Shown in pieces: positions 2,296-59,361 of a DNA stretch of 64,000 bases (its first letter is position 1; each line of letters starts with the position of its first letter). This stretch comes from Cytophagaceae bacterium (GTDB lineage Bacteria > Bacteroidota > Bacteroidia > Cytophagales > UBA9547). The position numbers and the translations under genes were made by a program. The notes below the pieces were generated by a model, which did no database searches, had not been told where the DNA came from, and saw only the letters and a program-made list of their open reading frames with translations. The stretch is taken from assembly GCA_027488865.1 (NCBI GenBank), contig JAIYAU010000018.1, positions 2,635 to 66,634 on the forward strand, read 5' to 3'.

Positions 2296-2466
2296 TTTAT
2301 GCAGCTAAAACTTTTAGTTTTTGTGTTAGATAGTAAATACTTTATGCAGCTAAAAGAAGTTTGTTTTGCTACATAAACATTTTCTTTTAGCTGCATAAAG
2401 TTTTTGTTCATAGTGCATAAATAATTTCTTAATAGTGCATAAAGTTTTTACTTTCTAATGCATAAT
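2296..2466. repeat. Iteron-like array: five ~22-bp direct units (T[G/A]CATAA core) plus two inverted copies, including a perfect 19-bp inverted repeat
   Basis: The core starts at 2370, 2392, 2414, 2436 and 2459 (steps 22, 22, 22, 23). TTTATGCAGCTAAAA is identical at 2296-2310 and 2341-2355. The arm at 2340-2358 is the exact reverse complement of 2382-2400. Confidence 0.8.
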
Positions 2467-2517: not shown

Positions 2518-3132
2518 TTATAAACTTTCAAATCTATACCCTAATTCCGAAAAATGTTCTAAATAGGCTGGCAAAACAAATTTTATTTTTTCGTAGGTTT
2601 TTAAATGGTCATGAAAAAGCACAATTGAGCCTGATCTCGTTGCTTTAATAGAATTTTTTAAGCAAGCCTCTTTTGAAATAATCTTTTCATAATCAGCACT
2701 TAACACATCCCACATAATTATTTTGTAATTTTTTGAGACTAATTTTATCTGTTCTCGTGTAATACGGCCGTAAGGAGGTCTAAATAATTGATTGCTTTTA
2801 GAGATAAGTTCTTCACATAGGGCTATGTTTTCAAGGTAAATGTTGGTTTCTGTTTTCCAGCCTTTTAAATGGTTATAGGTGTGGTTGCCTATAACATGGC
2901 CTTCTTCAATAACCCGTTTAAAAACTTCAGGATTTTTAGAAATATTTTCGCCCACACAAAAAAACGTAGCTTTAGCGTTGTAATTTTTTAAAGTGTCAAG
3001 TACAAAATCAGTTACTTCGGGTATAGGGCCATCATCAAAAGTGAGGTAAATAATTTTTTCATCCGTTTTAACATCCCAAACCAACGAGGGAAAAATCCAT
3101 TTTAAAAATATAGGAGTTTTGTGTAAAGTCAT
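2518..3132 (-). CDS. Polysaccharide deacetylase (NodB homology domain)
   Basis: TFDDGP and HTYNH motifs of the carbohydrate esterase 4 / NodB fold. There is a 1-nt gap to the upstream sugar transferase gene. Confidence 0.85.
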   Translation of the reverse strand: MTLHKTPIFLKWIFPSLVWDVKTDEKIIYLTFDDGPIPEVTDFVLDTLKNYNAKATFFCVGENISKNPEVFKRVIEEGHVIGNHTYNHLKGWKTETNIYLENIALCEELISKSNQLFRPPYGRITREQIKLVSKNYKIIMWDVLSADYEKIISKEACLKNSIKATRSGSIVLFHDHLKTYEKIKFVLPAYLEHFSELGYRFESL

Positions 3133-3133
3133 A

Positions 3134-4531
3134 TTATTTGCCTTCCGCCCTTAACACAGTTATTATAGTGAGATAAATAATTACAAAATCTAAATATAAG
3201 GACATGTTTTTAATATAAAAGATATCATATTTGAGCCTTTTAATCATTTCATCCACATTTTCTGCATAGCCATATTTTACCTGCGCTAAAGACGTGATTC
3301 CCGGCTTTACTTTTTGTCTTAATTTAAAATTAGGAGCAACCTTAACAATTTGATCTATATAAAATTGGCGTTCTGGACGTGGCCCCACCAGCGACATATC
3401 GCCAATAAGCACATTATAAAATTGAGGTAGTTCATCAATACGCGTTTTGCGCATAAACGCTCCCCAAGGAGTAATGCGTTTGTCGTTTTTGGACGATAGT
3501 GCCGGGCCTTTTTGCTCTGCATTAACATACATACTTCTAAATTTATATATCTTAAACGGATGTCCATTTTGACCTATGCGTTCTTGCCTAAAAAAAATTG
3601 GACCTGCAGAAGTAAATTTAGTGATTAACGAAAAAACCAGTAAAAAGGGGGATCCCAAAAATATAAAACTAAAAGATCCAATTATATCTAAAGTTCTTTT
3701 GATGGTTTTTTGCCAATGAGGAATAATATCCTTCCTTATTTCAATTAAAGGTAATTTAAACATGTAATTAATGCTAAATGAACCTATAATAATGTCTTCT
3801 AATTCCGGAATAATACTCACGTTGATGTCGTAAAAATCTAAAATCTCTAATGTTTTAGAAAGGTATTCATGTTCGTCAGGCTCTACAGCTATTACCACTT
3901 GCTCCACCTTAGAAATATTTATGATATGTTCAAGATTGGTAATATTTCCTAACATGTTTAGACCATTTAGGGTTTGTTTTTCAGGATTTACATACAAGTT
4001 ACCTATTACATTCCAGCCCAAAGAATGTTTTATCTTTTTAATCTCAGTAAGTATTTCGATGGCATTTTTGCCTGTGCCTATTATTATAGTGTTGAATAAA
4101 ATTTTACCCGTTTTGAAAAAAGATTTTACATAGGTCATTAGAATCATTCGCACCAAAACAATTAATAAAAATTGGATGCTTAGGTAGGAAAAATATATTT
4201 TAAAGAAATTCTTGTAACCGTCAATTCTATAATTTAAAGGAGCAAGCAGTGCACAAATAAAAAATACACCGATAACACTCAAAAACATAATATTAAAAAG
4301 TTCTTTTAATCTACTTTTTCTAGCAATATTGATGTATGCACCACTAAAATAATAGATAATCGTCCATATGAAAGCGATAAAGAGTGACTCAGTTACTTTA
4401 GCAGTAACAGAGTTAGATAAAAACTCAAAAAAATAGATATGAATATAAATTGCTAAAAATAACCAAGTTATAAAATTAATAACCAAATCGGATATAATAA
4501 AGGATAGGGTAATTTTGGTATTTATTTTCAT
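3134..4531 (-). CDS. Polyprenyl-phosphate glycosylphosphotransferase (WbaP/EpsB-type initiating sugar transferase)
   Basis: Several N-terminal TM segments. The C-terminal bacterial sugar transferase domain carries DELPQFYNVLIGDMSLVGPRP. Confidence 0.85.
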   Translation of the reverse strand: MKINTKITLSFIISDLVINFITWLFLAIYIHIYFFEFLSNSVTAKVTESLFIAFIWTIIYYFSGAYINIARKSRLKELFNIMFLSVIGVFFICALLAPLNYRIDGYKNFFKIYFSYLSIQFLLIVLVRMILMTYVKSFFKTGKILFNTIIIGTGKNAIEILTEIKKIKHSLGWNVIGNLYVNPEKQTLNGLNMLGNITNLEHIINISKVEQVVIAVEPDEHEYLSKTLEILDFYDINVSIIPELEDIIIGSFSINYMFKLPLIEIRKDIIPHWQKTIKRTLDIIGSFSFIFLGSPFLLVFSLITKFTSAGPIFFRQERIGQNGHPFKIYKFRSMYVNAEQKGPALSSKNDKRITPWGAFMRKTRIDELPQFYNVLIGDMSLVGPRPERQFYIDQIVKVAPNFKLRQKVKPGITSLAQVKYGYAENVDEMIKRLKYDIFYIKNMSLYLDFVIIYLTIITVLRAEGK

Positions 4532-4678
4532 GAGCCGAAAAAAATTAATAGCTATTTATAAAAAACGACTATTTTTGATTTTTATTATGGGTCAAAAATA
4601 TAAAAAATATACCATTGCTAACAAATTGACATTAGTTTTATTAACAGTCGTTTTTGTTTGGTATATTGAAAAGGCAGA

Positions 4679-5782
4679 ATGAAAGAATTAAAAGTTGCAA
4701 TAGTACAAGACTGGCTTTATTTTAACGGAGGTGCTGAAAAAGTACTTGAACAAATTATTTATTGTTTTCCACAAGCAGACATATTTAGCACCATTGATTT
4801 TTTAAAAGGAGAAGAAAGAAAAACAATTCATTATAAGAAAGTAACAACCACTTTTATACAAAAATTACCTTTTGCATCTAAACTTCATAGGCTTTATCTG
4901 CCATTTATGCCTTTGGCAATAGAACAATTGGATGTAAGTAACTATGATCTAGTAATTTCTAGCTCACATGCCGTGGCAAAAGGGGTGTTAACACATGCAG
5001 AGCAAATCCATGTTTGTTATTGTCATTCACCAATGAGGTATGCATGGGATTTGTATCATCAATACCTGGAAGAAAGTAATCTAAAAACTGGCCTAAAAGG
5101 CTGGTTTGCAAAATATTTTTTGCATAAAATAAGAATTTGGGATTATACTACCGCTAACAGAGTTGATTACTTTATTGCAAATTCCCATTATATTGCCAAA
5201 CGAATTAAAAAAGTGTACGGCAGAGATTCGGTGGTTATTTATCCACCTGTGGATACTGATAAATTTTCTTTACATATAGATAAGGAAGACTTTTATCTAA
5301 CTGCTTCGAGATTTGTTCCTTATAAAAAAATTGATATTATTGCAGAAGCATTCGCAAAAATGCCTAACAAAAAGTTAATAATTATAGGAGACGGCCCTGA
5401 TTTTAAAAGAATTAGTTCAAAGGCAACAGAGAACGTGGTTTTTATGGGTTACCAAACTTCTGATGTTATGGTAGATCATATGCAACGAGCCAAAGCATTT
5501 ATATTTGCAGCCAAAGAAGATTTTGGTATAATACCAGTAGAGGCGATGGCGTGTGGTACACCTGTTATCGCCTATGGTGCAGGCGGATGTTTGGAAACAG
5601 TTATAGATGGTGTTACAGGAGTGCATTTTTATGATCAAACAGCGGAGGCAATTGTGGAGGCTGTAGAAAAGTTTGAAGGAAAAAAAATCATATTTAATGC
5701 AAATCAAATTTCACAAAAAGCGTCAGATTTTTCTATTTCTTCTTTCAAAACTAAATTTTTAAGTTTCTTAAATTTTAAATAA
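4679..5782 (+). CDS. Glycosyltransferase, GT4 family (GT-B fold)
   Basis: C-terminal EDFGIIPVEAMACGTPVIAYGAGGCLETV (E-x7-E type motif). 367 aa. First gene of the + strand polysaccharide operon. Confidence 0.8.
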   Translation: MKELKVAIVQDWLYFNGGAEKVLEQIIYCFPQADIFSTIDFLKGEERKTIHYKKVTTTFIQKLPFASKLHRLYLPFMPLAIEQLDVSNYDLVISSSHAVAKGVLTHAEQIHVCYCHSPMRYAWDLYHQYLEESNLKTGLKGWFAKYFLHKIRIWDYTTANRVDYFIANSHYIAKRIKKVYGRDSVVIYPPVDTDKFSLHIDKEDFYLTASRFVPYKKIDIIAEAFAKMPNKKLIIIGDGPDFKRISSKATENVVFMGYQTSDVMVDHMQRAKAFIFAAKEDFGIIPVEAMACGTPVIAYGAGGCLETVIDGVTGVHFYDQTAEAIVEAVEKFEGKKIIFNANQISQKASDFSISSFKTKFLSFLNFK

Positions 5783-5794
5783 ATAAAAGGTATT

Positions 5795-6634
5795 ATGAAT
5801 TCCATTAATGAATTTAGTCTTAATAATGAACCTTCGTTAAATTATATATTAAAAAATGTATTTGGTTCTTTCTATAAAGCCAGAAAGCATTTATTTGTAG
5901 GAATTGTGGTTGGTGTCACATTTGGTATAATTTTTTGGATGGTAGCAACTCCTGAGTATAGTTCAAAATTAGTAGGGTATTCTGAAACTTTATCGGACAA
6001 AAGAATAAAAGATGAAATTTCGGACATTACCTTACTATTTAAGTTTAAAGATCACGAAGCAATTTCAAAAATGCTAGGTATGTCCATAAATAATGTTAAA
6101 AAAGTAAAATCTGTGGAATGTTTTACTGATTTAGAACTTACGAAATCAATTAAGAACCCAGAAACCTTTTTTACGATTCAAGCAGTAGTATATGATAATT
6201 TAATTTTAGATACTTTAGAAAAAGCACTTTGTAACTATTTAGAAAACAACGAATACGTTCACGTTAGGAAAATGAATAGTTTAGATAATTATTATACAAT
6301 GATAAATAAAATTAATATTGAGAGGTTATACATAGATAGCTTAAAATCACTTGTTTTAGTTAAACTTAATGATAAAGATAATCGAACTATGAATTTGGTC
6401 GGTGCAAATTTAAATGTTTTATCTGAGACTTCGTTGGGTCTTCAAGGTAGATTAATTGATCAAAAAAATAATATCAAATTTATAGATGATGTTAATATTA
6501 TCAAAAAGTTTAAACCTATCACCAAACCCATACATCCTAGAGGATTTGTTTCGATTTTATTTGGATTAATATTTGGTTTAGTTGCTGGATTTATATGGTT
6601 TGGATTTACGAGTATAAGGTCGAAAAATAAATAA
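5795..6634 (+). CDS. Membrane protein with Wzz-like (chain-length determinant) topology
   Basis: One TM near the N-terminus (LFVGIVVGVTFGIIFWMV) and one at the C-terminus (FVSILFGLIFGLVAGFIWFGF) flank a ~190-aa coiled, charged domain. The gene sits inside a polysaccharide operon. The call rests on topology only. Confidence 0.45.
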   Translation: MNSINEFSLNNEPSLNYILKNVFGSFYKARKHLFVGIVVGVTFGIIFWMVATPEYSSKLVGYSETLSDKRIKDEISDITLLFKFKDHEAISKMLGMSINNVKKVKSVECFTDLELTKSIKNPETFFTIQAVVYDNLILDTLEKALCNYLENNEYVHVRKMNSLDNYYTMINKINIERLYIDSLKSLVLVKLNDKDNRTMNLVGANLNVLSETSLGLQGRLIDQKNNIKFIDDVNIIKKFKPITKPIHPRGFVSILFGLIFGLVAGFIWFGFTSIRSKNK

Positions 6635-6635
6635 T

Positions 6636-7589
6636 ATGGAATTAGTGTATATTATTGTTTTAAACTATAATGGTTGGCAAGATACAATTGAATGCCTTGA
6701 AAGTATATTCGCCCAGACATATGATAACTTTAAGATAATAATTGTTGATAATTGTTCGATAAATAATTCAGTAGTTGAAATTTGTGAAATTTTCAAATCA
6801 AGTTTTCGAGGCTATAATTTGATATTAGTGAATGAAGATGATATTGAAACATTTACATCTTCTAAATCAAATTATTCAGATGATAATCAAGTTATTTTGA
6901 TAAAGTCAAATATAAATAAAGGTTATGCCTTTGGAAATAACTTAGGAATTAGATTTGCCCTAAAAGATCCGCTTTGTAATTTTGTTTGGATATTGAATAA
7001 TGATACAGTTCTTTATAATAATTCACTTGAAATAATGCTTTTTTCTGATAAGTGGTTTGTTAATAATACGGGGTTTTTAGGAAGTAAACTTGTGTATTAT
7101 AATAATCCAAATATCATTCAAGGATTTGGAGGTAAACTAAACAATAAATTTGGCACAGTGCAAGACGTTGGCGAAGGTAAGGATGTTTCAACAATTCTGG
7201 ATAAAACTGAAATTGACTATCCAATAGGTGCAAGTATAATGTTATCCAGAGAAATGATTGAGAAGGTTGGTCTACTTTGTGATGAATACTTCTTGTTTTA
7301 TGAAGAACTTGATTATTGTCAAAGAGCTAAAAGATTAGGATATAATTTTAGTGTTGAATCAAAATGTTTAATTAAACACAAACATGCAGCAAGCACACAA
7401 GCAAACAAGTTTAAATCTATTGAAATAGATTTAATTTCATTAAGAAGTAGGATAATATTTATGAAAAAATACTTTTCTTACAATATGCCTTATCTATATT
7501 TCAGCTTTATACTTATTATTCTTAAACGAATTTTAAAAGGACAATTCCTTAGGTCTTTCAGAATTGGTATAATGCTTTTTAATGTTTAG
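6636..7589 (+). CDS. Glycosyltransferase, GT2 family
   Basis: N-terminal IIVLNYNGWQDTIECLESIFAQTY...IIIVDNCS and an NNDT (DxD-like) motif. The start lies 1 nt after the upstream stop. Confidence 0.8.
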   Translation: MELVYIIVLNYNGWQDTIECLESIFAQTYDNFKIIIVDNCSINNSVVEICEIFKSSFRGYNLILVNEDDIETFTSSKSNYSDDNQVILIKSNINKGYAFGNNLGIRFALKDPLCNFVWILNNDTVLYNNSLEIMLFSDKWFVNNTGFLGSKLVYYNNPNIIQGFGGKLNNKFGTVQDVGEGKDVSTILDKTEIDYPIGASIMLSREMIEKVGLLCDEYFLFYEELDYCQRAKRLGYNFSVESKCLIKHKHAASTQANKFKSIEIDLISLRSRIIFMKKYFSYNMPYLYFSFILIILKRILKGQFLRSFRIGIMLFNV

Positions 7590-7595
7590 TATAAA

Positions 7596-8813
7596 ATGAT
7601 TCACTATTTAAAGTCAAGCTACGGAAGGCAAATAATTTTGTTAAATCTAATAGTAATATTTTTATTTATAAATATTCAATTTTGCAGTTTCATTATAATT
7701 TTATTTGCCTTAAACTTCTTAGTTAATTTAAACTTTAAAAAAGTGCTATTAGAGGGTGTGAAAAATGTTTTTTTTCTTACCAATGCATTTTTTCTTGTTT
7801 TTTTCATTATATCTTTAATCTATACCGAAAATTTTAGTGGAGGGCTGTTTGAAATAGAAAAAAAATTAACATTTATAGTATTTCCACTTATTTTAGCTGT
7901 AGTCAGATTAAAGACTGAAGACCTTTACTTATTGTTTAAAACATTTATATTGTGTTGTGCTACTATTTGCTCCATATCTCTTATTTTAGCAATTAAGCGA
8001 TATACCTATTCCCAAAATATTAACTACTTTTTTTTAAATGAAATATTATATTTCACAGATTTCCATCGTGTTTATCTGTCTTTTTATTTGTTATTTGCAA
8101 TTCATCTCATAATGGGCATCGACGAATTGGAATTAAGAGGAGGTTATAAGTTTTTTTTAATTTCAACTTTTACCTTGTTTATACTTTTGTTAGCCTCCAG
8201 AATGATCATAGTTTTGATGATTCTTTCTTTTGTTTATATTGTTATGAACAAAGTAAGAGATAGGAAAAGGGTAATTCTATTATTAAGCTTATTTATATCC
8301 TTTGTTACCTTTTTTGTATTACTTACTCCAATATATGAAATGTTAGCCAACTTATTTACAAATCTGCAGAATGGAAATGTTCAGGGGAAAACAAATGGGG
8401 TTAATCTTAGAATTATCCAGTGGAATTTGGCATTTAGGCTTATTCTTAAAAGTATTTGGATTGGTTATGGGCCAGGTGATTTTTTAATTGTTTTAACAAA
8501 CTTTTACAAAGAAAATGGATTCAATTATGGATATGATAATAGGCTTAACTCACATAACCAAATATTAGACACCGTACTTGGTTTGGGTCTAGTTGGGTTT
8601 TGTTCTCTGTTAGCTATTTTATATGTCTCCTTTAAGACTGCAATTAAGGAATATGGGAAATTGCCGATTTATTTTATTTTTCTTTCAATATTTTGTTTGA
8701 CTATGATATCTGAGTCGGTTCTTGAAACAAATAAAGGGATTATATTTTTTACATTATTTAATTCTTTACTATTTTTTAATAAAGAGGCTAATTTAGATGG
8801 AAAAATCAAATGA
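7596..8813 (+). CDS. O-antigen ligase/polymerase family membrane protein (Wzy_C-like)
   Basis: About 10 TM segments. Loop with NSHNQILDTVLGLGLVGF, typical of the O-antigen ligase-like domain. Confidence 0.6.
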   Translation: MIHYLKSSYGRQIILLNLIVIFLFINIQFCSFIIILFALNFLVNLNFKKVLLEGVKNVFFLTNAFFLVFFIISLIYTENFSGGLFEIEKKLTFIVFPLILAVVRLKTEDLYLLFKTFILCCATICSISLILAIKRYTYSQNINYFFLNEILYFTDFHRVYLSFYLLFAIHLIMGIDELELRGGYKFFLISTFTLFILLLASRMIIVLMILSFVYIVMNKVRDRKRVILLLSLFISFVTFFVLLTPIYEMLANLFTNLQNGNVQGKTNGVNLRIIQWNLAFRLILKSIWIGYGPGDFLIVLTNFYKENGFNYGYDNRLNSHNQILDTVLGLGLVGFCSLLAILYVSFKTAIKEYGKLPIYFIFLSIFCLTMISESVLETNKGIIFFTLFNSLLFFNKEANLDGKIK

Positions 8814-10105
8814 ATGTACCTGACTGGATTTGTGATACCGCCTATATAATAGTGATAGTTCATTTTTTGGTTAATTGGTTGGTCGAGTATAAAAAAACTC
8901 TTTGGAAAATAGACTTTTGGCACGTTATTATCTTCATAAAGTTTGTTTTTCCAAGTATTCTTATGTATTATTTTAGTACTTCTATTAAGAACCTTTCACA
9001 TGTCGGAATAGCCCTACCTGCTATTATTGTAAATATAAATTTTATCTTCGTAATTTCTATCGTTGGTTACGTTAGTATCTATTTTGGAAGATTATTGTAT
9101 GACTCTTTAGGTCAGCCTAGTAAAAAATATACAATAGAGAATATTATTCAAAATAACGTTAATTCTGAAATTTCGATTAAATTCTTCTTTTACTTCTATT
9201 TGTTTCTAAGTAGTGTCGTAATATTTATTCAAGGTAGTCATGGATATATATTTAATGGACGAACTTTTTATCAATTTAACGATTCTTTACGCCCACTATA
9301 TAATTTAGCGGTAATTTTATATTTCAATATCTTTTTGATTTTATTTATTAAGTATCTTGAAACTAAAACTAAAGAAAACCTAATTAGGGTGATTTTAGTT
9401 TTTTGTACCGGCCTCTTTTTTGAATCAAGGGCTGCAATTTTAGAACCAATAATGTTTGCTATACTGTTTTATTCATTTTTAAATTTTAAGAAAGTTAAAT
9501 TCGTCAATATAATGTTTATTGCTGTGATACTAATGGTAATTGCAATTTTGATGTTATCTCTTAGATTTAAACAAGTAGATTATACTAATTGGTTAATAAT
9601 ATTAGAAGAAATTTTATATGGGGATAATTTTTCAGATTTGCGAGATTTTACTTGGTTTTATTCTAATTGGGATAAAAATTTTATTTATGGGAAAACATAT
9701 CTAGCTGGTATTATTTCATTTTTACCTAGATTTATAAGCAATTTTAGGCAAGAATGGGCAATAAGTGTTTATACAAATGGATACATGGGTTTTGACATTT
9801 CAATTCATCCTGGATTAAGAATTGGGTTGTTCGGGGAGTCTTATATTAATTTTGGATGGCTAGGTGTTATATTTCTAGGTGTTTTTTTTGGGTGGCTTGT
9901 TAGATTGGTAGATAAAGGTATAAAATTTGCTGTTTGTTCTGAGAATAATTTAGTAAATGCATATTCTAAACTAATTTGGTGGTATTTGATTTATGCATTT
10001 TGCATTAGTACTGGTTTTTCTGGCTTTTATAGTTTTATTTTAATTACAATTTTACTTTATACTTTTCGACAGGTGTTTTATAGTTTTTTTGTATTTAAGA
10101 ATTGA
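8810..10105 (+). CDS. Polytopic membrane protein, putative second oligosaccharide repeat-unit polymerase (Wzy-like)
   Basis: About 11-12 TM segments, aromatic-rich. ATGA start/stop overlap with the upstream gene suggests translational coupling. The call rests on context and topology only. Confidence 0.4.
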   Translation: MNVPDWICDTAYIIVIVHFLVNWLVEYKKTLWKIDFWHVIIFIKFVFPSILMYYFSTSIKNLSHVGIALPAIIVNINFIFVISIVGYVSIYFGRLLYDSLGQPSKKYTIENIIQNNVNSEISIKFFFYFYLFLSSVVIFIQGSHGYIFNGRTFYQFNDSLRPLYNLAVILYFNIFLILFIKYLETKTKENLIRVILVFCTGLFFESRAAILEPIMFAILFYSFLNFKKVKFVNIMFIAVILMVIAILMLSLRFKQVDYTNWLIILEEILYGDNFSDLRDFTWFYSNWDKNFIYGKTYLAGIISFLPRFISNFRQEWAISVYTNGYMGFDISIHPGLRIGLFGESYINFGWLGVIFLGVFFGWLVRLVDKGIKFAVCSENNLVNAYSKLIWWYLIYAFCISTGFSGFYSFILITILLYTFRQVFYSFFVFKN

Positions 10106-11346
10106 ATTATTTTTGTATAAAAATGGGACAGGAAACTAAATGTTACATAACTTTCAATTATAATTATTCCAATTAAAGCTCCTATTAAATCAAATTTATA
10201 GGTCATGACTATAACCATTGGAATGCCAAACACGCATGCACTAGTGTAAATTTTTTGGTAAATTTTTTGCATATTTTTAGCAATTAGGATTTGATAAAAG
10301 GGGATATTAACACAAATAACAATTGGAGTTAACAATAATAATTGTAAGTATTTGTAGTATAACAAATCGTTAGGAATAAAATAGTTTATTATTATTTTCG
10401 CAAACAACATACCTATTAAACTCAAAACAACTATTAGTATAAAAAACGGTAGATAATACGTTCTAAAAAATTGGTACAGAGGTTGGGTTCCTGATAAGGA
10501 TAGTTGACAAACTCTAGGGTAAATGGAGTTGCTATATACACTTAAAAGGTGCCTATACAAAAGAATTATTCTTTCAAAAATACCGTAAATCCCCAAAATA
10601 TAGGGTGTAACAAAATAACTTAATATCAAACTTGTTGAATTGGAATATAATGAAATAGATAGATTGGAGTAGAAAATAAATCTTCCTTCTGATAAGGTTT
10701 TTATAATTTTGCTTAAAGGTATAAATTTTAAAGTATAGTTTTTTGATTTAAATAAATATAAAGTTCCAATTAAGCCTGAAACTACATTTCCTAATCCATA
10801 TAAAAGGCATACCCATTGATAATCATTAGAATCTTTAATAACTAGAAATATCATTCCATTAAAAAAAATTTTTGAGATTACATTAAGTAAAGTTAGAAAG
10901 TCCATTCTTTCTATACCTTGAAAAAACCAAGTTGGAAGTAGAGCATTTCCTACAACCATTGAAAATCCTAAAATAAAGGCTAAAAAATTTTCTTGCCCGA
11001 TTTTATAAAGACATACAAATATTAAGTAGAATACGAAACAAATTATTAGTAACAAAAATTTAGTTGAATAGATACTGTTTACAATGTTATTTAATAATAA
11101 TTCATTATTTTTATTTTGCGCTACCTCTCTTGTCGCTGAAATATTAAATCCATAATCAACTACATTTTGAAAAAAGATAATTGAACTTAAAATCGCTGTT
11201 ATAATCCCAAAATGTGATAATCCAACAATTTTTATAACATAAGGGAAAGTTAATATTGGGATAATAAAATTTGTTAGCTGGATTAATGCAAGCGAAATAA
11301 AATTTCTAATCACCTTATTTTTTAATATGCTTGTTATGAGTAACAT
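10078..11346 (-). CDS. wzx: Polysaccharide flippase (MOP superfamily, Wzx-like)
   Basis: 422 aa, about 12-14 TM segments. N-terminus NFISLALIQLTNFIIPILTFPYVIKIVG is typical of the Polysacc_synt family. Its 3' end overlaps the convergent gene by 28 nt. Confidence 0.7.
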   Translation of the reverse strand: MLLITSILKNKVIRNFISLALIQLTNFIIPILTFPYVIKIVGLSHFGIITAILSSIIFFQNVVDYGFNISATREVAQNKNNELLLNNIVNSIYSTKFLLLIICFVFYLIFVCLYKIGQENFLAFILGFSMVVGNALLPTWFFQGIERMDFLTLLNVISKIFFNGMIFLVIKDSNDYQWVCLLYGLGNVVSGLIGTLYLFKSKNYTLKFIPLSKIIKTLSEGRFIFYSNLSISLYSNSTSLILSYFVTPYILGIYGIFERIILLYRHLLSVYSNSIYPRVCQLSLSGTQPLYQFFRTYYLPFFILIVVLSLIGMLFAKIIINYFIPNDLLYYKYLQLLLLTPIVICVNIPFYQILIAKNMQKIYQKIYTSACVFGIPMVIVMTYKFDLIGALIGIIIIESYVTFSFLSHFYTKIIQFLNTKKL

Positions 11347-11478
11347 GAAATATGTTTTATACCGCCTTTAGAATATCAAAACTAATAAAAAAAGCACGGT
11401 TGGTATGTCCAAAATTTTATTTAATGGTAAAAGAAATATTAAAAGTTGTCCTATGAATATAAACTATAAACTACATAT

Positions 11479-11517
11479 AAAAAATGCCTTAAATTTTAAT
11501 AACGACCCAATTAAGGC
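11479..11517 (-). terminator. Intrinsic terminator downstream of the GT9 gene
   Basis: On the - strand, GCCTTAA-N18-TTAAGGC is followed by a T6 run (the + strand A-run at 11479-11484). Confidence 0.5.
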
Positions 11518-11648
11518 CTTTTCTAAAACCTGGGCTTGAACATTTGCTATGTGCCTTGGTATTAATTTTCCTCATTTTTATACATTTGTCCTGATAATGA
11601 TTTTTCTTAATGTTCTTAGGATATTAAATTCAAAATTTATTTTAATTT

Positions 11649-12659
11649 TTAAATAAAACTATTCAACGTCAACATAACTTCAGAAACCGAAATTTCTTTC
11701 ATACAATCATTTGAAGAACATTTTTCATATGCTTTTCCATCATAACAAGGCCTACAGCTTAGTGCTTGTCCGCCCCAAATAAATTTGGATTTAGGATGCA
11801 GACTTTTAAATGAATAGGGGCTTGTTGGTCCAAATAAACCTATGGAAGGAATATTAGCTAAGTCAGCAAGATGTAGTGGCCCACTATCATGAGTAATTAA
11901 TATATCTCCCTTGGATATTATTCTGATAGTATCTAATAGTTTGTATTTACCAATTAAATTATGCACGTTCAAATGGGCAAAATACTCTTCCACCCAATTA
12001 TCCAATGGCCCACCGATTATGGTAACAGTATGTCCGTCCAATATTAAATTTTGAGCTAAACTTACATAGTTTTCAATAGGCCATCTTCTTAAACTATCCT
12101 CACTAAGTAAATTCTTTGCTCCTCCCGGGGATAAAATGAATTTTTTTTTGTCAGGTTTTACAAATAGGTTTAGATTAGTTTCAATGTTGCTAATTTTTGG
12201 ATATTCTATATCATATTGATAAGGACCAGTATTCATCTCAAATGACCAAAGATAATCGTAAGTATGGTGGTGTTGAGGTATTGGCAATAGTCGTTGCTTT
12301 TTAAATCTATTAAAGCATCTAATTTCTTTAATTTTAACGGTGGACAGCAATAATTTATATTTGTTAGTGTAGTAGTAATAAAGACCTAAATCGTATCTAG
12401 TACCAAATAATTTTAAACAAGTTCTAAATATTTCGGTAATGACTTTCAGAATGTTATTACCTAAAAGTTTTGAATCATCAACTTCAATTATTTCATCAAT
12501 TTCTTTTATTTCTTGTAAAATAGGTGTCACTGTTTTGCCACACAACCAACTTATATGGGCATTCGGGTGTTTCTTTTTGATATGTGTTACCAATGGTAAA
12601 CACATTACCACATCACCTATTGCACCAATTTTAACAATTAATATTTTCATTTTAATCAA
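11649..12659 (-). CDS. Glycosyltransferase family 9 (LPS heptosyltransferase-like)
   Basis: N-terminal MKILIVKIGAIGDVVMCLPL, and HDSGPLHLA...GLFGPT near the C-terminus, are GT9 hallmarks. The gene starts 7 nt downstream of rlmB. Confidence 0.8.
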   Translation of the reverse strand: MIKMKILIVKIGAIGDVVMCLPLVTHIKKKHPNAHISWLCGKTVTPILQEIKEIDEIIEVDDSKLLGNNILKVITEIFRTCLKLFGTRYDLGLYYYYTNKYKLLLSTVKIKEIRCFNRFKKQRLLPIPQHHHTYDYLWSFEMNTGPYQYDIEYPKISNIETNLNLFVKPDKKKFILSPGGAKNLLSEDSLRRWPIENYVSLAQNLILDGHTVTIIGGPLDNWVEEYFAHLNVHNLIGKYKLLDTIRIISKGDILITHDSGPLHLADLANIPSIGLFGPTSPYSFKSLHPKSKFIWGGQALSCRPCYDGKAYEKCSSNDCMKEISVSEVMLTLNSFI

Positions 12660-12666
12660 ATTAACC

Positions 12667-13413
12667 TTATTTCATCCTCCCCCTTACCACCTCATAAATT
12701 ATAACGCCAGCAGCAACAGACACATTGAGCGACTCAATTTTGCCATACATTGGGATTTTAACTAAATGGTCACTTCGTTTTAGGTATTCTGGAGATACGC
12801 CGTCTTCTTCTGAGCCCATGATAATGGCTGTGGGTAAAGTATAGTCAGGACCATACAGCAAGTCATCTGTTTTTTCTGTACAAGCAATGATCTGTAGGCC
12901 GCTTTCTTTTAAGTATTCAATGGTCTTTTTTAGGTTATATTCTCTGCAAATTGGCAAATAACTAATTGCCCCTGCTGAGGTTTTCATGGCGTCACTATTG
13001 ATTTGAGCACCGCCTTTTTCTGGGATAATGATAGCATGTACTCCAGCACACTCTGCTGTGCGGCAAATAGCACCAAAATTTCTTACATCTGTTACCCTGT
13101 CTAATATGAGTAGGAGGGGAGTTTCACCTTTTTCGAAGGTATCGGCAATGATATTTTCAATAGAAGAAAATTGTACATAAGCAGCAAAGGCAATTACTCC
13201 TTGATGGTTTTTGCGTGTTATTCTATCTAACTTTTCTGGGGGATTGATACTAATAGTAACATTTAGCTCCTTGGCCAATTGTATAAGTTCAGGCAATTGT
13301 TGGTTGGTAAGGCCTTTTTGAACCAATATTTTGTCTATTTCTTTTCCAGAACGAAGTGCCTCTAATACGGGCCTAAATCCAAATAAAAAATCTTCTGTTT
13401 TTGTTTCCTTCAC
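12667..13413 (-). CDS. rlmB: 23S rRNA (guanosine-2'-O)-methyltransferase RlmB (SpoU/TrmH family)
   Basis: N-terminal substrate-binding domain (FGFRPVLEALRSGKEIDKILV). SPOUT motifs NFGAICRTAE, IIMGSEEDGV and ESLNVSVAAGVIIYE. Confidence 0.85.
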   Translation of the reverse strand: MKETKTEDFLFGFRPVLEALRSGKEIDKILVQKGLTNQQLPELIQLAKELNVTISINPPEKLDRITRKNHQGVIAFAAYVQFSSIENIIADTFEKGETPLLLILDRVTDVRNFGAICRTAECAGVHAIIIPEKGGAQINSDAMKTSAGAISYLPICREYNLKKTIEYLKESGLQIIACTEKTDDLLYGPDYTLPTAIIMGSEEDGVSPEYLKRSDHLVKIPMYGKIESLNVSVAAGVIIYEVVRGRMK

Positions 13414-44553: not shown

Positions 44554-44827
44554 ATGTTCTTATTTATATTTTTTTGTTTACAAAATTAATTACAAAGATA
44601 AATAATTTGAATTACAATTTGTTCTAATTTAAGCAAACAGCTTCAAACCAGTTATATTTTAATATTTTATATTAAAGGTTCTTAATAAGTTGAGTATGTT
44701 ATATTTTATTAATTGTTATCCTGTTTAAAATAGAGTTTATAAAATAGTATTAGAAGTTTTAAAACGTTTAAATGCTTAAGATAGATGTTAATTAGGTTTT
44801 TAGAATGGTAAGAACAAGATTTAAATA

Positions 44828-45247
44828 ATAGAAAGAATTATTAAAATTTGTTTAAACCTTTTTTATAAAATAGGAAGGTAAATTAAGATTTGGTTAAAAG
44901 TTACTAAATAAATAGAAAGCGGTAATTAGTTTGGCTTAAACATTGATTATAAAATAGAAAGGTAAATTAAGTTTGGTTTAAAGGTTACTAAATAATTAGA
45001 AAGCAGTAATTAGTTTTGTTTAAACATTGGTTATAAAATTGAAAGGTAAATTAGGTTTGTTTAAAAGGTTACTAAATAATTAGAAAGCAGTAATTAGTTT
45101 TGTTTAAACATTGGTTATAAAATAGAAAGGTAAATTAGGTTTGGTTAAAAAATTAATAAATAAATAGAAAGCATTAATTTATTTTGTTCCAGAGTTTATT
45201 ATTAGTTAGAAAGCATTAATAGGTTTTGGATAAAAAAATGAGGAACA
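44828..45247 (+). repeat. Tandem array: ten in-register 42-bp units (five 84-bp A+B dimers), with degenerate copies extending back to about 44730
   Basis: The anchor octamer (A/T)T(A/T)G(A/G)AAG starts at 44828, 44870, 44912, 44954, 44996, 45038, 45080, 45122, 45164 and 45206. The units at 44996 and 45080 are identical over 42/42 nt. All reading frames are closed. Confidence 0.9.
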
Positions 45248-57474: not shown

Positions 57475-57516
57475 TTATTAATTAATAATTATCAATCATC
57501 AATTATCAATTCTCAA

Positions 57517-59265
57517 TTAATAAATAACTACTTTCTCAGTTTTGTTATTCAATTTGATGAAGTACATACCTTTTTCAAGACCTTCTACAGATACTTGAGT
57601 ATCTACACCAGCTCTTACCACTTTACCAGCAGCATTGAACAATGTAAATGCAGTACTAGACTCAGCGATAGTTAAAGAACCACCAGAGATCGGGTTAGGA
57701 TAAACCGATGAGTTAAGAACTGGAGTGATGATAGCGTCTTCAGAAGAAGTGATTGAAGATAATCTACCATCGAAAGAGGCACCAGATAGCGCTGGAGAGT
57801 TGGCTTTAGGTCTGTAATTTGGAGCAGTTGCATTATTAGGATCTGTCAAAACGTCTGCCGTTGTGAAAAGACCGTTTTTAATGCCAACTGTGTTATCATT
57901 TGCAGAACTTGTAATAAAGTTATTTGCATTTGTTAAATCTCCCGCTAAAGAAACTTCTACTAAACCATTTGAAGTTGAAGCTCCAGTAATTCCTTCGTAG
58001 GGATTCACGAACAAATTGTTTTTTACTTCTATTATCTCATTAGCAACAGCTTTAGTTCCTTTAACACCGGCATAAGCCAATACAGAATCACTTTCCAATC
58101 TTATTGCATTTTTGTAACCCATAAAAATGGAGTTATAAATACTTAGTTTAGTATTTCTTCTAATGAGCGCTCCTGTTCTAAATGCAGATTGTTGCGTATT
58201 GTTTAAAGAATCGTAAGTTTTACCGACCGGAATAGGACCAACACAAGTAATGTTACTAAAAATTGGTTTGGTGTAAGGTTTAGCACCTGTACCTTGACCA
58301 TCGTTATCAGATTCAAATGTGTTTGAACCGTTATTTGCACTTGATGAATATGTAACATCAAATAACCCTTTATCTCGAACCGCTATCCCAAATTGTACTA
58401 TCCCTGAAAAACCAAAATCTGTATCAAAATCGTCATCAGTAACCTTGTAAGAAATTAAATGTTTACAATTTACATTTCCTCCGAACCATTCAAATCCGTC
58501 ATCTGCACCATAAGATACTTGAACATAATCAATTGTGGTAGTATTGTTTACTGCACCCATAGTAAGAGAGTTAGTTTCTCTATCTGTATCTAAATCAGTA
58601 CCAGCAAATTCAATTCTAAGGTACTTTATAGATCCATTACTAAAAGTTTCATTATTACCACCAAAACGACCAAAGTTTTTTAAAATTGGTTTTCTATCAA
58701 ATCCTTCTAATTGAGGAAGACTTGGGGATATACTTCTGTTAGATCTACCTGGACCACAAATTAATACTCCTGACCAATCTTCTGGAGCTCTGTCACCAGG
58801 AGCTTTGTTAGAAGTCATTACTACTGGGCTAGTCTTTGTACCTTGAACATCAATCTTTCCAGTTGTAGTAACAAGAATCATAGCGTAATTATTAGCAGAT
58901 GGCTGTGATTCAGCTCTTATAACAGTACCAGCAGGTATAGTTAAAGTGGCTCCATCACTAACAATAATCATACCTTTAAGTAGATAAACAGAAGAAGATG
59001 ATAAGGTTAAATCTGTTTTTATTGTTTTTCTACCTATTGTATCCCCAGAAGCAACATTATCCATTGCGTTTAAAGTGCTATTATCTGTAGTAGCGTCATA
59101 GGCTTTAAATTTTGGATTAAATTCTGTCCAACCTGCTGTCCAATCTTGATCGATGTCAGAACTTAAAGCACCAACATATGTGGTTGGGGTTAAAAATTGC
59201 GCATTTACGCTAAAAGCACTTAGCATTGCTAGGCTTGTAACAATTTGTAAAAATCTTTTTTTCAT
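57517..59265 (-). CDS. Secreted protein with a T9SS C-terminal sorting domain, co-operonic with the TonB-dependent receptor
   Basis: The likely start is MKKRFLQIVTSLAMLSAFSVNAQ. The C-terminus VYPNPISGGSLTI...GMYFIKLNNKTEKVVIY is a T9SS CTD. The central region is beta-helix-like, with DDGFEWFGGNV. Confidence 0.65.
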   Translation of the reverse strand: MKKRFLQIVTSLAMLSAFSVNAQFLTPTTYVGALSSDIDQDWTAGWTEFNPKFKAYDATTDNSTLNAMDNVASGDTIGRKTIKTDLTLSSSSVYLLKGMIIVSDGATLTIPAGTVIRAESQPSANNYAMILVTTTGKIDVQGTKTSPVVMTSNKAPGDRAPEDWSGVLICGPGRSNRSISPSLPQLEGFDRKPILKNFGRFGGNNETFSNGSIKYLRIEFAGTDLDTDRETNSLTMGAVNNTTTIDYVQVSYGADDGFEWFGGNVNCKHLISYKVTDDDFDTDFGFSGIVQFGIAVRDKGLFDVTYSSSANNGSNTFESDNDGQGTGAKPYTKPIFSNITCVGPIPVGKTYDSLNNTQQSAFRTGALIRRNTKLSIYNSIFMGYKNAIRLESDSVLAYAGVKGTKAVANEIIEVKNNLFVNPYEGITGASTSNGLVEVSLAGDLTNANNFITSSANDNTVGIKNGLFTTADVLTDPNNATAPNYRPKANSPALSGASFDGRLSSITSSEDAIITPVLNSSVYPNPISGGSLTIAESSTAFTLFNAAGKVVRAGVDTQVSVEGLEKGMYFIKLNNKTEKVVIY

Positions 59266-59361
59266 TTTATTTAAGTTTAAAACCATTACAAATTTATTCT
59301 AATGGAAGTAATTAAATGTTACCTAAATGTTAACAAATAATGAATTAATCAACTTATAATC

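Follow-up and report, generated by a model that had tools for sequence, protein, structure and literature searches.

The 359-bp gap between a polysaccharide deacetylase gene and an alkB-like gene of an uncultured Cytophagales-like bacterium carries eight phased repeat units of 22–23 bp, which are opposed about a long hairpin. The structure is tentatively explained as a lineage-specific, AT-rich repeat palindrome, in which the center would act as a bidirectional terminator or insulator and the other copies would be duplicates generated by slippage and inversion. The array is genuine, ordinary in kind and not conserved. It is not a replication origin, it gives no sign of being a conserved operator, and the data at hand point to termination and to no further mechanism.

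Genomic context of the array

The stretch of DNA that was analyzed (64 kb, referred to here as the window) makes up about half of a 132.6-kb source contig and is housekeeping chromosome. It contains pgi, alkB, a polysaccharide locus (genes for the deacetylase, Bac_transf, GT4, Wzy, a flippase and GT9), the gene for a SpoU methylase, leuB, ruvC, aspS, tyrS, dnaG, ftsH, hflX and the gene for an H+-PPase, and it also encodes several T9SS cargo proteins. The best relatives of its pgi are found in Cytophagales MAGs. Among the ORFs of at least 120 aa in the 64 kb, Pfam searches detected no Rep, integrase, transposase, recombinase, mobilization or obvious regulator gene.

Both genes that flank the gap lie on the minus strand, and the array is situated downstream of the deacetylase stop codon (2518) and 138–308 bp upstream of the alkB ATG (2158). 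The intergenic region is AT-rich throughout (24% GC), and the small ORFs of the array region are artefacts of the repeats that match no family.

Anatomy and statistics of the repeat array

The sequence-only reading had described five plus-strand units, a duplicated 15-mer and a 19-bp inverted repeat with a 23-nt loop, and all of its coordinates hold; its account of the layout, direct repeats of about two helical turns beside inverted copies, is likewise correct. The array as delimited here extends from 2282 to 2480 and comprises eight units in phase, of which three belong to the minus strand and five to the plus strand, and the 8-bp core TGCATAAA is common to them (Table 1). A phased-core scan of the plus strand found TACATAAA at 2370, TGCATAAA at 2392, 2414 and 2436, and TGCATAAT at 2459 (steps of 22, 22, 22 and 23), and TRF reported a period-22 array at 2372–2465 with 4.2 copies and 75% matches, which means that the plus-strand units are about 75% alike. 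On the minus strand, identical copies of the 15-mer TTTATGCAGCTAAAA occupy 2296–2310 and 2341–2355, and between them lies a degenerate unit, CACAAAAA (core at 2318–2325), which is additional to those described before. In total, TTTATGCAGCTAAAA is present in three copies in two orientations. The orientation of the units switches at about 2359, with three units pointing left and five pointing right, and the 22–23-bp phase is kept by all eight units, from 2303 to 2459, across this switch. Unit r1 agrees with the inverted u4 in 21 of its 23 positions, and similarity is lowest for the outermost units of the array.

Table 1. Positions of the repeat units, the central hairpin and neighboring features in the window.
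Feature	Position	Strand	Description
Convergent pgi/alkB terminator (comparison element)	1546–1596	–	Two-tier hairpin, tail AGTTTTTGTTGTTT
alkB-like 2OG-Fe(II) oxygenase gene	1646–2158	minus	PF13532; downstream of the array in the direction of transcription
Unit r3	2282–2303	minus	TGCATAAATCTTTCAGCATTGA; core 2296–2303, within the 15-mer TTTATGCAGCTAAAA at 2296–2310
Unit r2 (degenerate)	2304–2325	minus	CACAAAAACTAAAAGTTTTAGC; 5 of 8 core positions kept; keeps the 22–23-bp phase of r1–r3
Unit r1	2326–2348	minus	TGCATAAAGTATTTACTATCTAA; core 2341–2348
Central hairpin	2335–2405	–	Arms 2335–2358 and 2382–2405; proposed bidirectional terminator/insulator
Unit u1	2370–2391	plus	TACATAAACATTTTCTTTTAGC; 7 of 8 core positions
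Unit u2	2392–2413	plus	TGCATAAAGTTTTTGTTCATAG
Unit u3	2414–2435	plus	TGCATAAATAATTTCTTAATAG
Unit u4	2436–2458	plus	TGCATAAAGTTTTTACTTTCTAA; 23 bp
Unit u5	2459–2480	plus	TGCATAATTTTTTAGAAGTCCG; 7 of 8 core positions; the unit nearest to the deacetylase stop codon
Polysaccharide deacetylase gene	2518–3132	minus	PF01522; last gene of the Bac_transf-deacetylase unit, transcribed towards the array

The repeat array is far beyond what chance would produce. Exact copies of TGCATAAA number seven in the 64 kb, a total equal to expectation (7.4), and five of these seven lie within 150 bp; under a Poisson model, a cluster of this kind would arise at some place in the window with a probability of about 1e-8. 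Substitutions among the units are distributed unevenly over the 22 columns, being concentrated in the 14-bp spacer, and the 8-bp core is better kept. Of 38–50 mismatches to the consensus over seven to eight units, 2–5 fall in the best 8-column window, which is the core (permutation p of about 0.002–0.004), in a test for which the phase was picked post hoc on data already seen and in which indels of the T-run raise the mismatch count of the spacer.

The central hairpin as a candidate terminator

The arm at 2340–2358 is the exact reverse complement of 2382–2400, and this perfect 19-bp inverted repeat, which is directly followed by TTTTTGTT at 2401–2408, can be extended to 24 nt at 96% complementarity. 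The 23-nt loop contains a 5-bp inner stem; read on the plus strand, AAATAC precedes the hairpin and GTTTTTGTT follows it. The units and the hairpin overlap: the core end of r1 (2335–2348) is part of the left arm, the first 14 bases of u2 (2392–2405) belong to the right arm, and the T-run of u2 (2401–2408) is the plus-strand tail. The predicted energy of the hairpin is −33.6 kcal/mol on the plus strand (z = −9.8 against shuffles) and −30.7 kcal/mol on the minus strand (z = −8.3), and it is by far the strongest of all intergenic regions in the window and the only strong hairpin or terminator candidate in the gap. It lies 113–183 nt 3′ of the deacetylase stop codon, a location that corresponds to the 3′ end of a transcription unit.

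The hairpin resembles the convergent pgi/alkB terminator in its outer stem, the small inner stem in its loop, its A-rich 5′ flank and its 3′ tail of AGTTTTTGTT, and further gene ends in the window carry canonical hairpins with A- and T-tracts at their flanks. On the plus strand the tail, GUUUUUGUU, is a good U-tail; the minus-strand tail, GUAUUUACUAUCU, is only moderately U-rich. The hairpin energy and the terminator-like shape best fit an idea that the sequence-only reading had put second, namely that the long hairpin terminates the minus-strand polysaccharide operon, a plus-strand RNA, or both.

The hairpin is most likely a bidirectional intrinsic terminator or insulator that separates the polysaccharide operon from alkB and pgi, termination itself being inferred. 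It would prevent minus-strand transcripts of the Bac_transf-deacetylase unit from running on into alkB, and in the plus-strand direction, with its better U-tail, it would keep antisense or divergent transcripts out of the polysaccharide operon. The remaining phased 22-bp units would then be tandem slippage duplicates, together with one inverted duplicate, of the hairpin arms and T-tail, and they would have partly decayed outside the 8-bp core. In every plus-strand unit, the 3′ stem arm is followed by the T-run (TGCATAAAGTTTTT), as would be expected if slippage had duplicated a terminator half.

Several features fit the terminator less well. The stem (19–24 bp) and loop (23 nt) are much larger than canonical, and the hairpin was passed over by a consensus terminator scan limited to loops of at most 8 nt and a minimum of 3 GC pairs. 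It is the minus strand that needs a terminator, yet the minus-strand tail is the poorer one. The constraint on the core, with the reservation given above for its p value, appears to exceed what a single hairpin needs. In addition, no convincing promoter of the Bacteroidetes type (TTG ... TAnnTTTG) for alkB is found between the array and the ATG.

The better plus-strand U-tail, on a strand where no gene needs one, raises the possibility of an RNA element: either a small plus-strand RNA that starts at 2160–2330 and ends with the hairpin and its U-tail at about 2408, or a long, imperfect hairpin of the read-through transcript, used for processing or stability between the polysaccharide mRNA and alkB. 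The region 2270–2500 folds well below shuffles on both strands (z of −4.3 and −4.7), and the lack of a clear alkB promoter is compatible with co-transcription followed by processing. Nevertheless, such an element is improbable. At gathering and permissive thresholds alike, Rfam returned no family, the weak matches being generic hairpin models far below the cut-offs; no good plus-strand promoter lies upstream of the hairpin; and the small ORFs are, as stated, repeat artefacts that match no family.

The outermost units are 23–35 bp from outward-pointing boxes that resemble the −7 element, TAAATTCG at 2272–2265 on the minus strand and a perfect TAAGTTTG at 2502–2509 on the plus strand. The latter points antisense into the 3′ end of the deacetylase gene, 35 bp past the core of the last unit, and it is not accompanied by a properly spaced −33 TTG.

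Other tandem repeats in the window

Tandem arrays in intergenic DNA are found at two further places in the window, which indicates that this genome generates and tolerates such repeats. The larger, at 44822–45235, has a period of 42 bp (super-period 84/168) with about 7–10 copies and lies between an hflX-like GTPase gene and an ORF of 221 aa of unknown function, both on the minus strand. On the plus strand, the Bacteroidetes −7 box (TAAGTTTG / TAGGTTTG) is matched perfectly, and more than once, within its units. At 57475–57519, the heptamer TTATCAA is repeated 6.4 times and abuts the annotated start of the gene for a T9SS-sorted protein (57517–59286, minus strand).

Absence of the array from relatives

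The rest of the 64-kb window contains no second array or cluster of the motif, and no phased array was found in about 750 kb of other Bacteroidota loci. Comparison with 72,556 plasmids and 50,697 phages by blastn revealed no similarity to the region. Three exact matches in viral contigs to an 18-mer of the hairpin arm were set aside as chance, since they are not accompanied by repeats. A literature search for the 8-mer and for the Bacteroidetes ArgR motif yielded nothing usable.

A conserved operator of alkB can be rejected. Among 80 alkB loci taken from genome representatives, none has the phased motif or AGCTGCATAAA; the 8-mer TGCATAAA occurs in one of 78 other alkB upstream regions, and no comparable tandem array is present upstream of these 78 homologs from Bacteroidota. 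The AlkB-like protein itself has no relative above 82% identity, and its best matches come from Pedobacter, Ilyomonas and Flavobacterium, not from Cytophagales.

The closest relative was reached through the 90%-cluster mate of the deacetylase (P0361), which led to three contigs from other samples (L211–L213). Its DNA is 92.4% identical over window positions 2520–3721, and homology ends exactly at the deacetylase stop codon. The 138 bp that follow the deacetylase gene in this relative contain no TGCATAAA and show no significant similarity to the gap; in a semi-global alignment with the intergenic region they score no better than shuffles (z = −0.4), and on this result an in-place expansion of the array from the sequence of the relative was discarded as an explanation. 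All three contigs end 138 bp after the deacetylase gene (L211 10622–10759, and likewise L212 and L213), at a 9-bp palindrome (ACTTTTTGT CTTAAC ACAAAAAGT). A contig end shared by three samples suggests a branch point of the assembly graph caused by strain variation or by a repeat.

On the other side, homology to a relative by pgi (L085, 93%) ends 8 bp after the pgi stop codon, and that contig is not syntenic downstream of pgi; a deacetylase relative at 71% has a different context. Because homology ends at these two points, 8 bp after pgi and at the deacetylase stop codon, the segment 1544–2519 is specific to this genome. This segment of 976 bp, which comprises the pgi/alkB terminator, alkB and the array and is absent from the nearest relatives, marks a synteny breakpoint, and its absence there, together with the best alkB matches outside Cytophagales, suggests horizontal acquisition. 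The palindrome sits at this breakpoint, where a variable locus for polysaccharide synthesis has its 3′ end. Over window positions 2520–12838, L211 shares the SpoU flank and the 3′ part of Bac_transf with the deacetylase gene at 92%, and between these shared flanks it has different glycosyltransferase and Wzy genes. The polysaccharide locus, judged from this comparison, appears to be a replaceable cassette.

Two checks that the sequence-only reading had proposed are covered by these results, and neither supports its suggestion of a multi-site operator. Clusters of the motif elsewhere, for which the 64-kb window was searched, do not occur, and in the same intergenic region of relatives the array is missing, homology stopping at the deacetylase stop codon; as noted, the alkB upstream regions do not carry it either.

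The position of the element exactly at the breakpoint, with units opposed about a central point, recalls a relic of mobile DNA or a recombination substrate, such as two transposon ends that abut as a miniature element devoid of cargo and have 22-bp binding sites in subterminal position, an element of the REP/BIME kind, or a short segment that inverts between 20–24-nt inverted repeats. Recombination could act on the three copies of TTTATGCAGCTAAAA, which lie in two orientations, and the break of the three relative contigs 138 bp after the deacetylase gene suggests a variable junction. The rest of the evidence makes an origin of this kind very unlikely. There is no second copy in the other loci or in the 64 kb, which represent about half of the 132.6-kb contig, contrary to what would be seen for a dispersed repeat (REP/BIME or MITE). 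Similarity is lowest for the outermost units, a target-site duplication is not seen, and no transposase or recombinase is encoded in the window. Although inverted repeats are present as in an inverton, they are only 23–74 bp apart and enclose no promoter-like site, and over the array region no difference exists between the two assemblies that are available for this organism. Two more specific candidates were rejected on inspection: abutted ends of the Tn7 type, because the outermost units are the least similar and neither a TGT/ACA terminus nor a transposase is present, and an integron attC site, because the R″/R′ cores are in the wrong order.

Comparison with iterons of plasmid origins

A period of 22 bp, five direct units and inverted partial copies are also found in replication origins, and the sequence-only reading had accordingly recognized in the array the plan of plasmid iterons with an autoregulatory operator. 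When metagenomes were searched for three TGCATAAA spaced 22 bp apart, at least 120 loci (L086–L205) were recovered, many of which have perfect or near-perfect 22-bp tandem copies beginning TGCATAAAC. By tblastn, a Rep_3-like gene is present on the same contig in 29 of 120 of these loci, mostly 65–388 bp from the array and in a few cases apparently farther away, and five of the Rep_3 genes were confirmed by Pfam (Rep3_N and Rep3_C). Real iterons of Rep_3 plasmids can therefore carry the core TGCATAAA at a 22-bp period, but the 8-mer that they share with the present array is the search pattern itself and is not independent evidence. Rep_3 origins whose 22-bp iterons are otherwise quite different (...GTATAGATAAGAC, ...GTCCATTTATTGG, ...CTATTCAATATGC, ...CCCTTTTTATTGG) all start with TGCATAAAC, which hints that this start may be a conserved sub-site recognized by this clade of Rep_3 proteins.

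The array lacks the other properties of such origins. Its units, at about 75% similarity, do not include three or more near-identical copies over 17–22 bp, whereas the real iterons that were inspected are near-perfect and mostly lie 65–388 bp from a Rep_3-like gene. No initiator gene is adjacent: tblastn with five Rep_3 proteins gave only matches with E > 4 in the 64 kb, in which no other Rep, integrase or mobilization gene was seen. The gap (2159–2517) contains no DnaA box TTATCCACA with up to one mismatch, and AT-richness, as a mark of an unwinding element, does not discriminate here, because the gap is AT-rich as a whole. Over the entire window, 9-mers within one mismatch of this DnaA box number 40 against 23.4 expected, a count reached by none of 100 shuffles; they are scattered and form no cluster near the array. 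It is thus most improbable that the array is a functional or vestigial origin of plasmid or phage type, with Rep-binding iterons and an inverted-repeat operator integrated into the chromosome. With no similarity to plasmids or phages, and with a likeness to real iterons that is limited to the 8-mer used as search pattern even where these begin TGCATAAA(C), this reading is already largely refuted.

A possible array of protein-binding sites

The better conservation of the core 8-mer than of the 14-bp spacer, together with the phase that is held across the orientation switch, would also be expected if an oligomerizing protein encoded elsewhere recognized TGCATAAA. Such a protein would bind as many as eight sites along a single face of the helix, arranged divergently about the dyad at about 2359, and would either control alkB or set an architectural boundary where the polysaccharide locus ends. 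The outermost units, at 23–35 bp from the outward −7-like boxes, are placed compatibly with this. A few chromosomal contigs of Bacteroidales-like character bear similar intergenic arrays, in which the core is conserved and the spacer variable; one of these arrays (L175/L191) lies directly upstream of argR, and L192 and L178 are others. However, these arrays were selected for the core and hence are not independent evidence, and the conservation test was made post hoc. In addition, no regulator gene is seen among the ORFs of at least 120 aa in the 64 kb, the motif does not recur in the window, and it is absent both upstream of alkB in the 78 other Bacteroidota loci and from the closest relative. 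A protein-binding array is for these reasons rather unlikely, although the conservation of the core keeps it a serious alternative to the terminator with its slippage and inversion duplicates.

The argR array (L175 12016–12130 and L191 600–720) contains four TGCATAAA units in 22-bp phase, accompanied by copies of TGCATAA / TTTTGCA, and may be an ArgR operator. The units of the present array were themselves considered as ARG boxes, and this was rejected on inspection because the second half-site is missing. It is doubtful, but conceivable, that the eight TGCATAAA units are an array for an undescribed oligomerizing protein of Bacteroidota that coats or wraps about 200 bp at the edge of a polysaccharide locus and acts as an insulator or as a regulator of the DNA-repair gene, in which case L175/L191, L192 and L178 would be further sites.

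If the preferred explanation is true, a terminator hairpin expanded by slippage and inversion at a recombination-prone locus boundary, its importance is limited, and the case carries the caution that an iteron-like 22-bp layout alone indicates neither an origin nor an operator. If, on the other hand, the core reflects protein binding, the array would define a new kind of multi-site element on the chromosome of a phylum that has been little studied, and it might place the control of DNA alkylation repair, or that of polysaccharide loci, under an unknown factor.

Comparison with known systems

Among known arrangements, the iterons of Rep_3 plasmids share with the array the 22-bp period, at least four direct repeats with inverted partial copies and, in some cases, the beginning TGCATAAA(C). 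They are near-perfect over 22 bp and near their Rep_3 gene, at the distances given above, whereas the array keeps only the 8-bp core and a few flanking positions and lies, with neither rep nor DnaA box, in a housekeeping chromosome. Phased operators, such as ArgR ARG boxes (21 bp) and the direct repeats of AraC/XylS and LytTR regulators (21–22 bp), likewise present a short core every two helical turns. They usually consist of 2–4 sites at a defined distance from the promoter and recur across a regulon; the array differs in having eight sites, no recurrence and no cognate regulator, and its units are not ARG-box palindromes.

Enterobacterial REP/BIME elements are also short palindromic units clustered in intergenic DNA at the end of an operon, but REP elements exist in hundreds of dispersed copies of alternating orientation, and the motif of the array is confined to one locus. 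The invertons of Bacteroidetes resemble the array in their inverted repeats of 20–24 nt beside a polysaccharide-synthesis locus. Unlike invertons, the array is placed at the 3′ end of the operon, its repeats, 23–74 bp apart, have no promoter-like sequence between them, and there is no recombinase gene in the vicinity.

From ordinary intrinsic terminators, the central hairpin differs in its weak minus-strand U-tract and in being embedded in eight phased repeats, and its stem of 19–24 bp and loop of 23 nt contrast with stems of 8–16 bp and loops of 3–9 nt in the other terminators of the window (15 nt in the loop of the pgi/alkB terminator). In common with bidirectional Rho-independent terminators, it is bordered by A-rich sequence at its 5′ side and T-rich sequence at its 3′ side and is located between transcription units, and it shares its two-tier shape and its AGTTTTTGTT tail with the pgi/alkB terminator 800 bp away.
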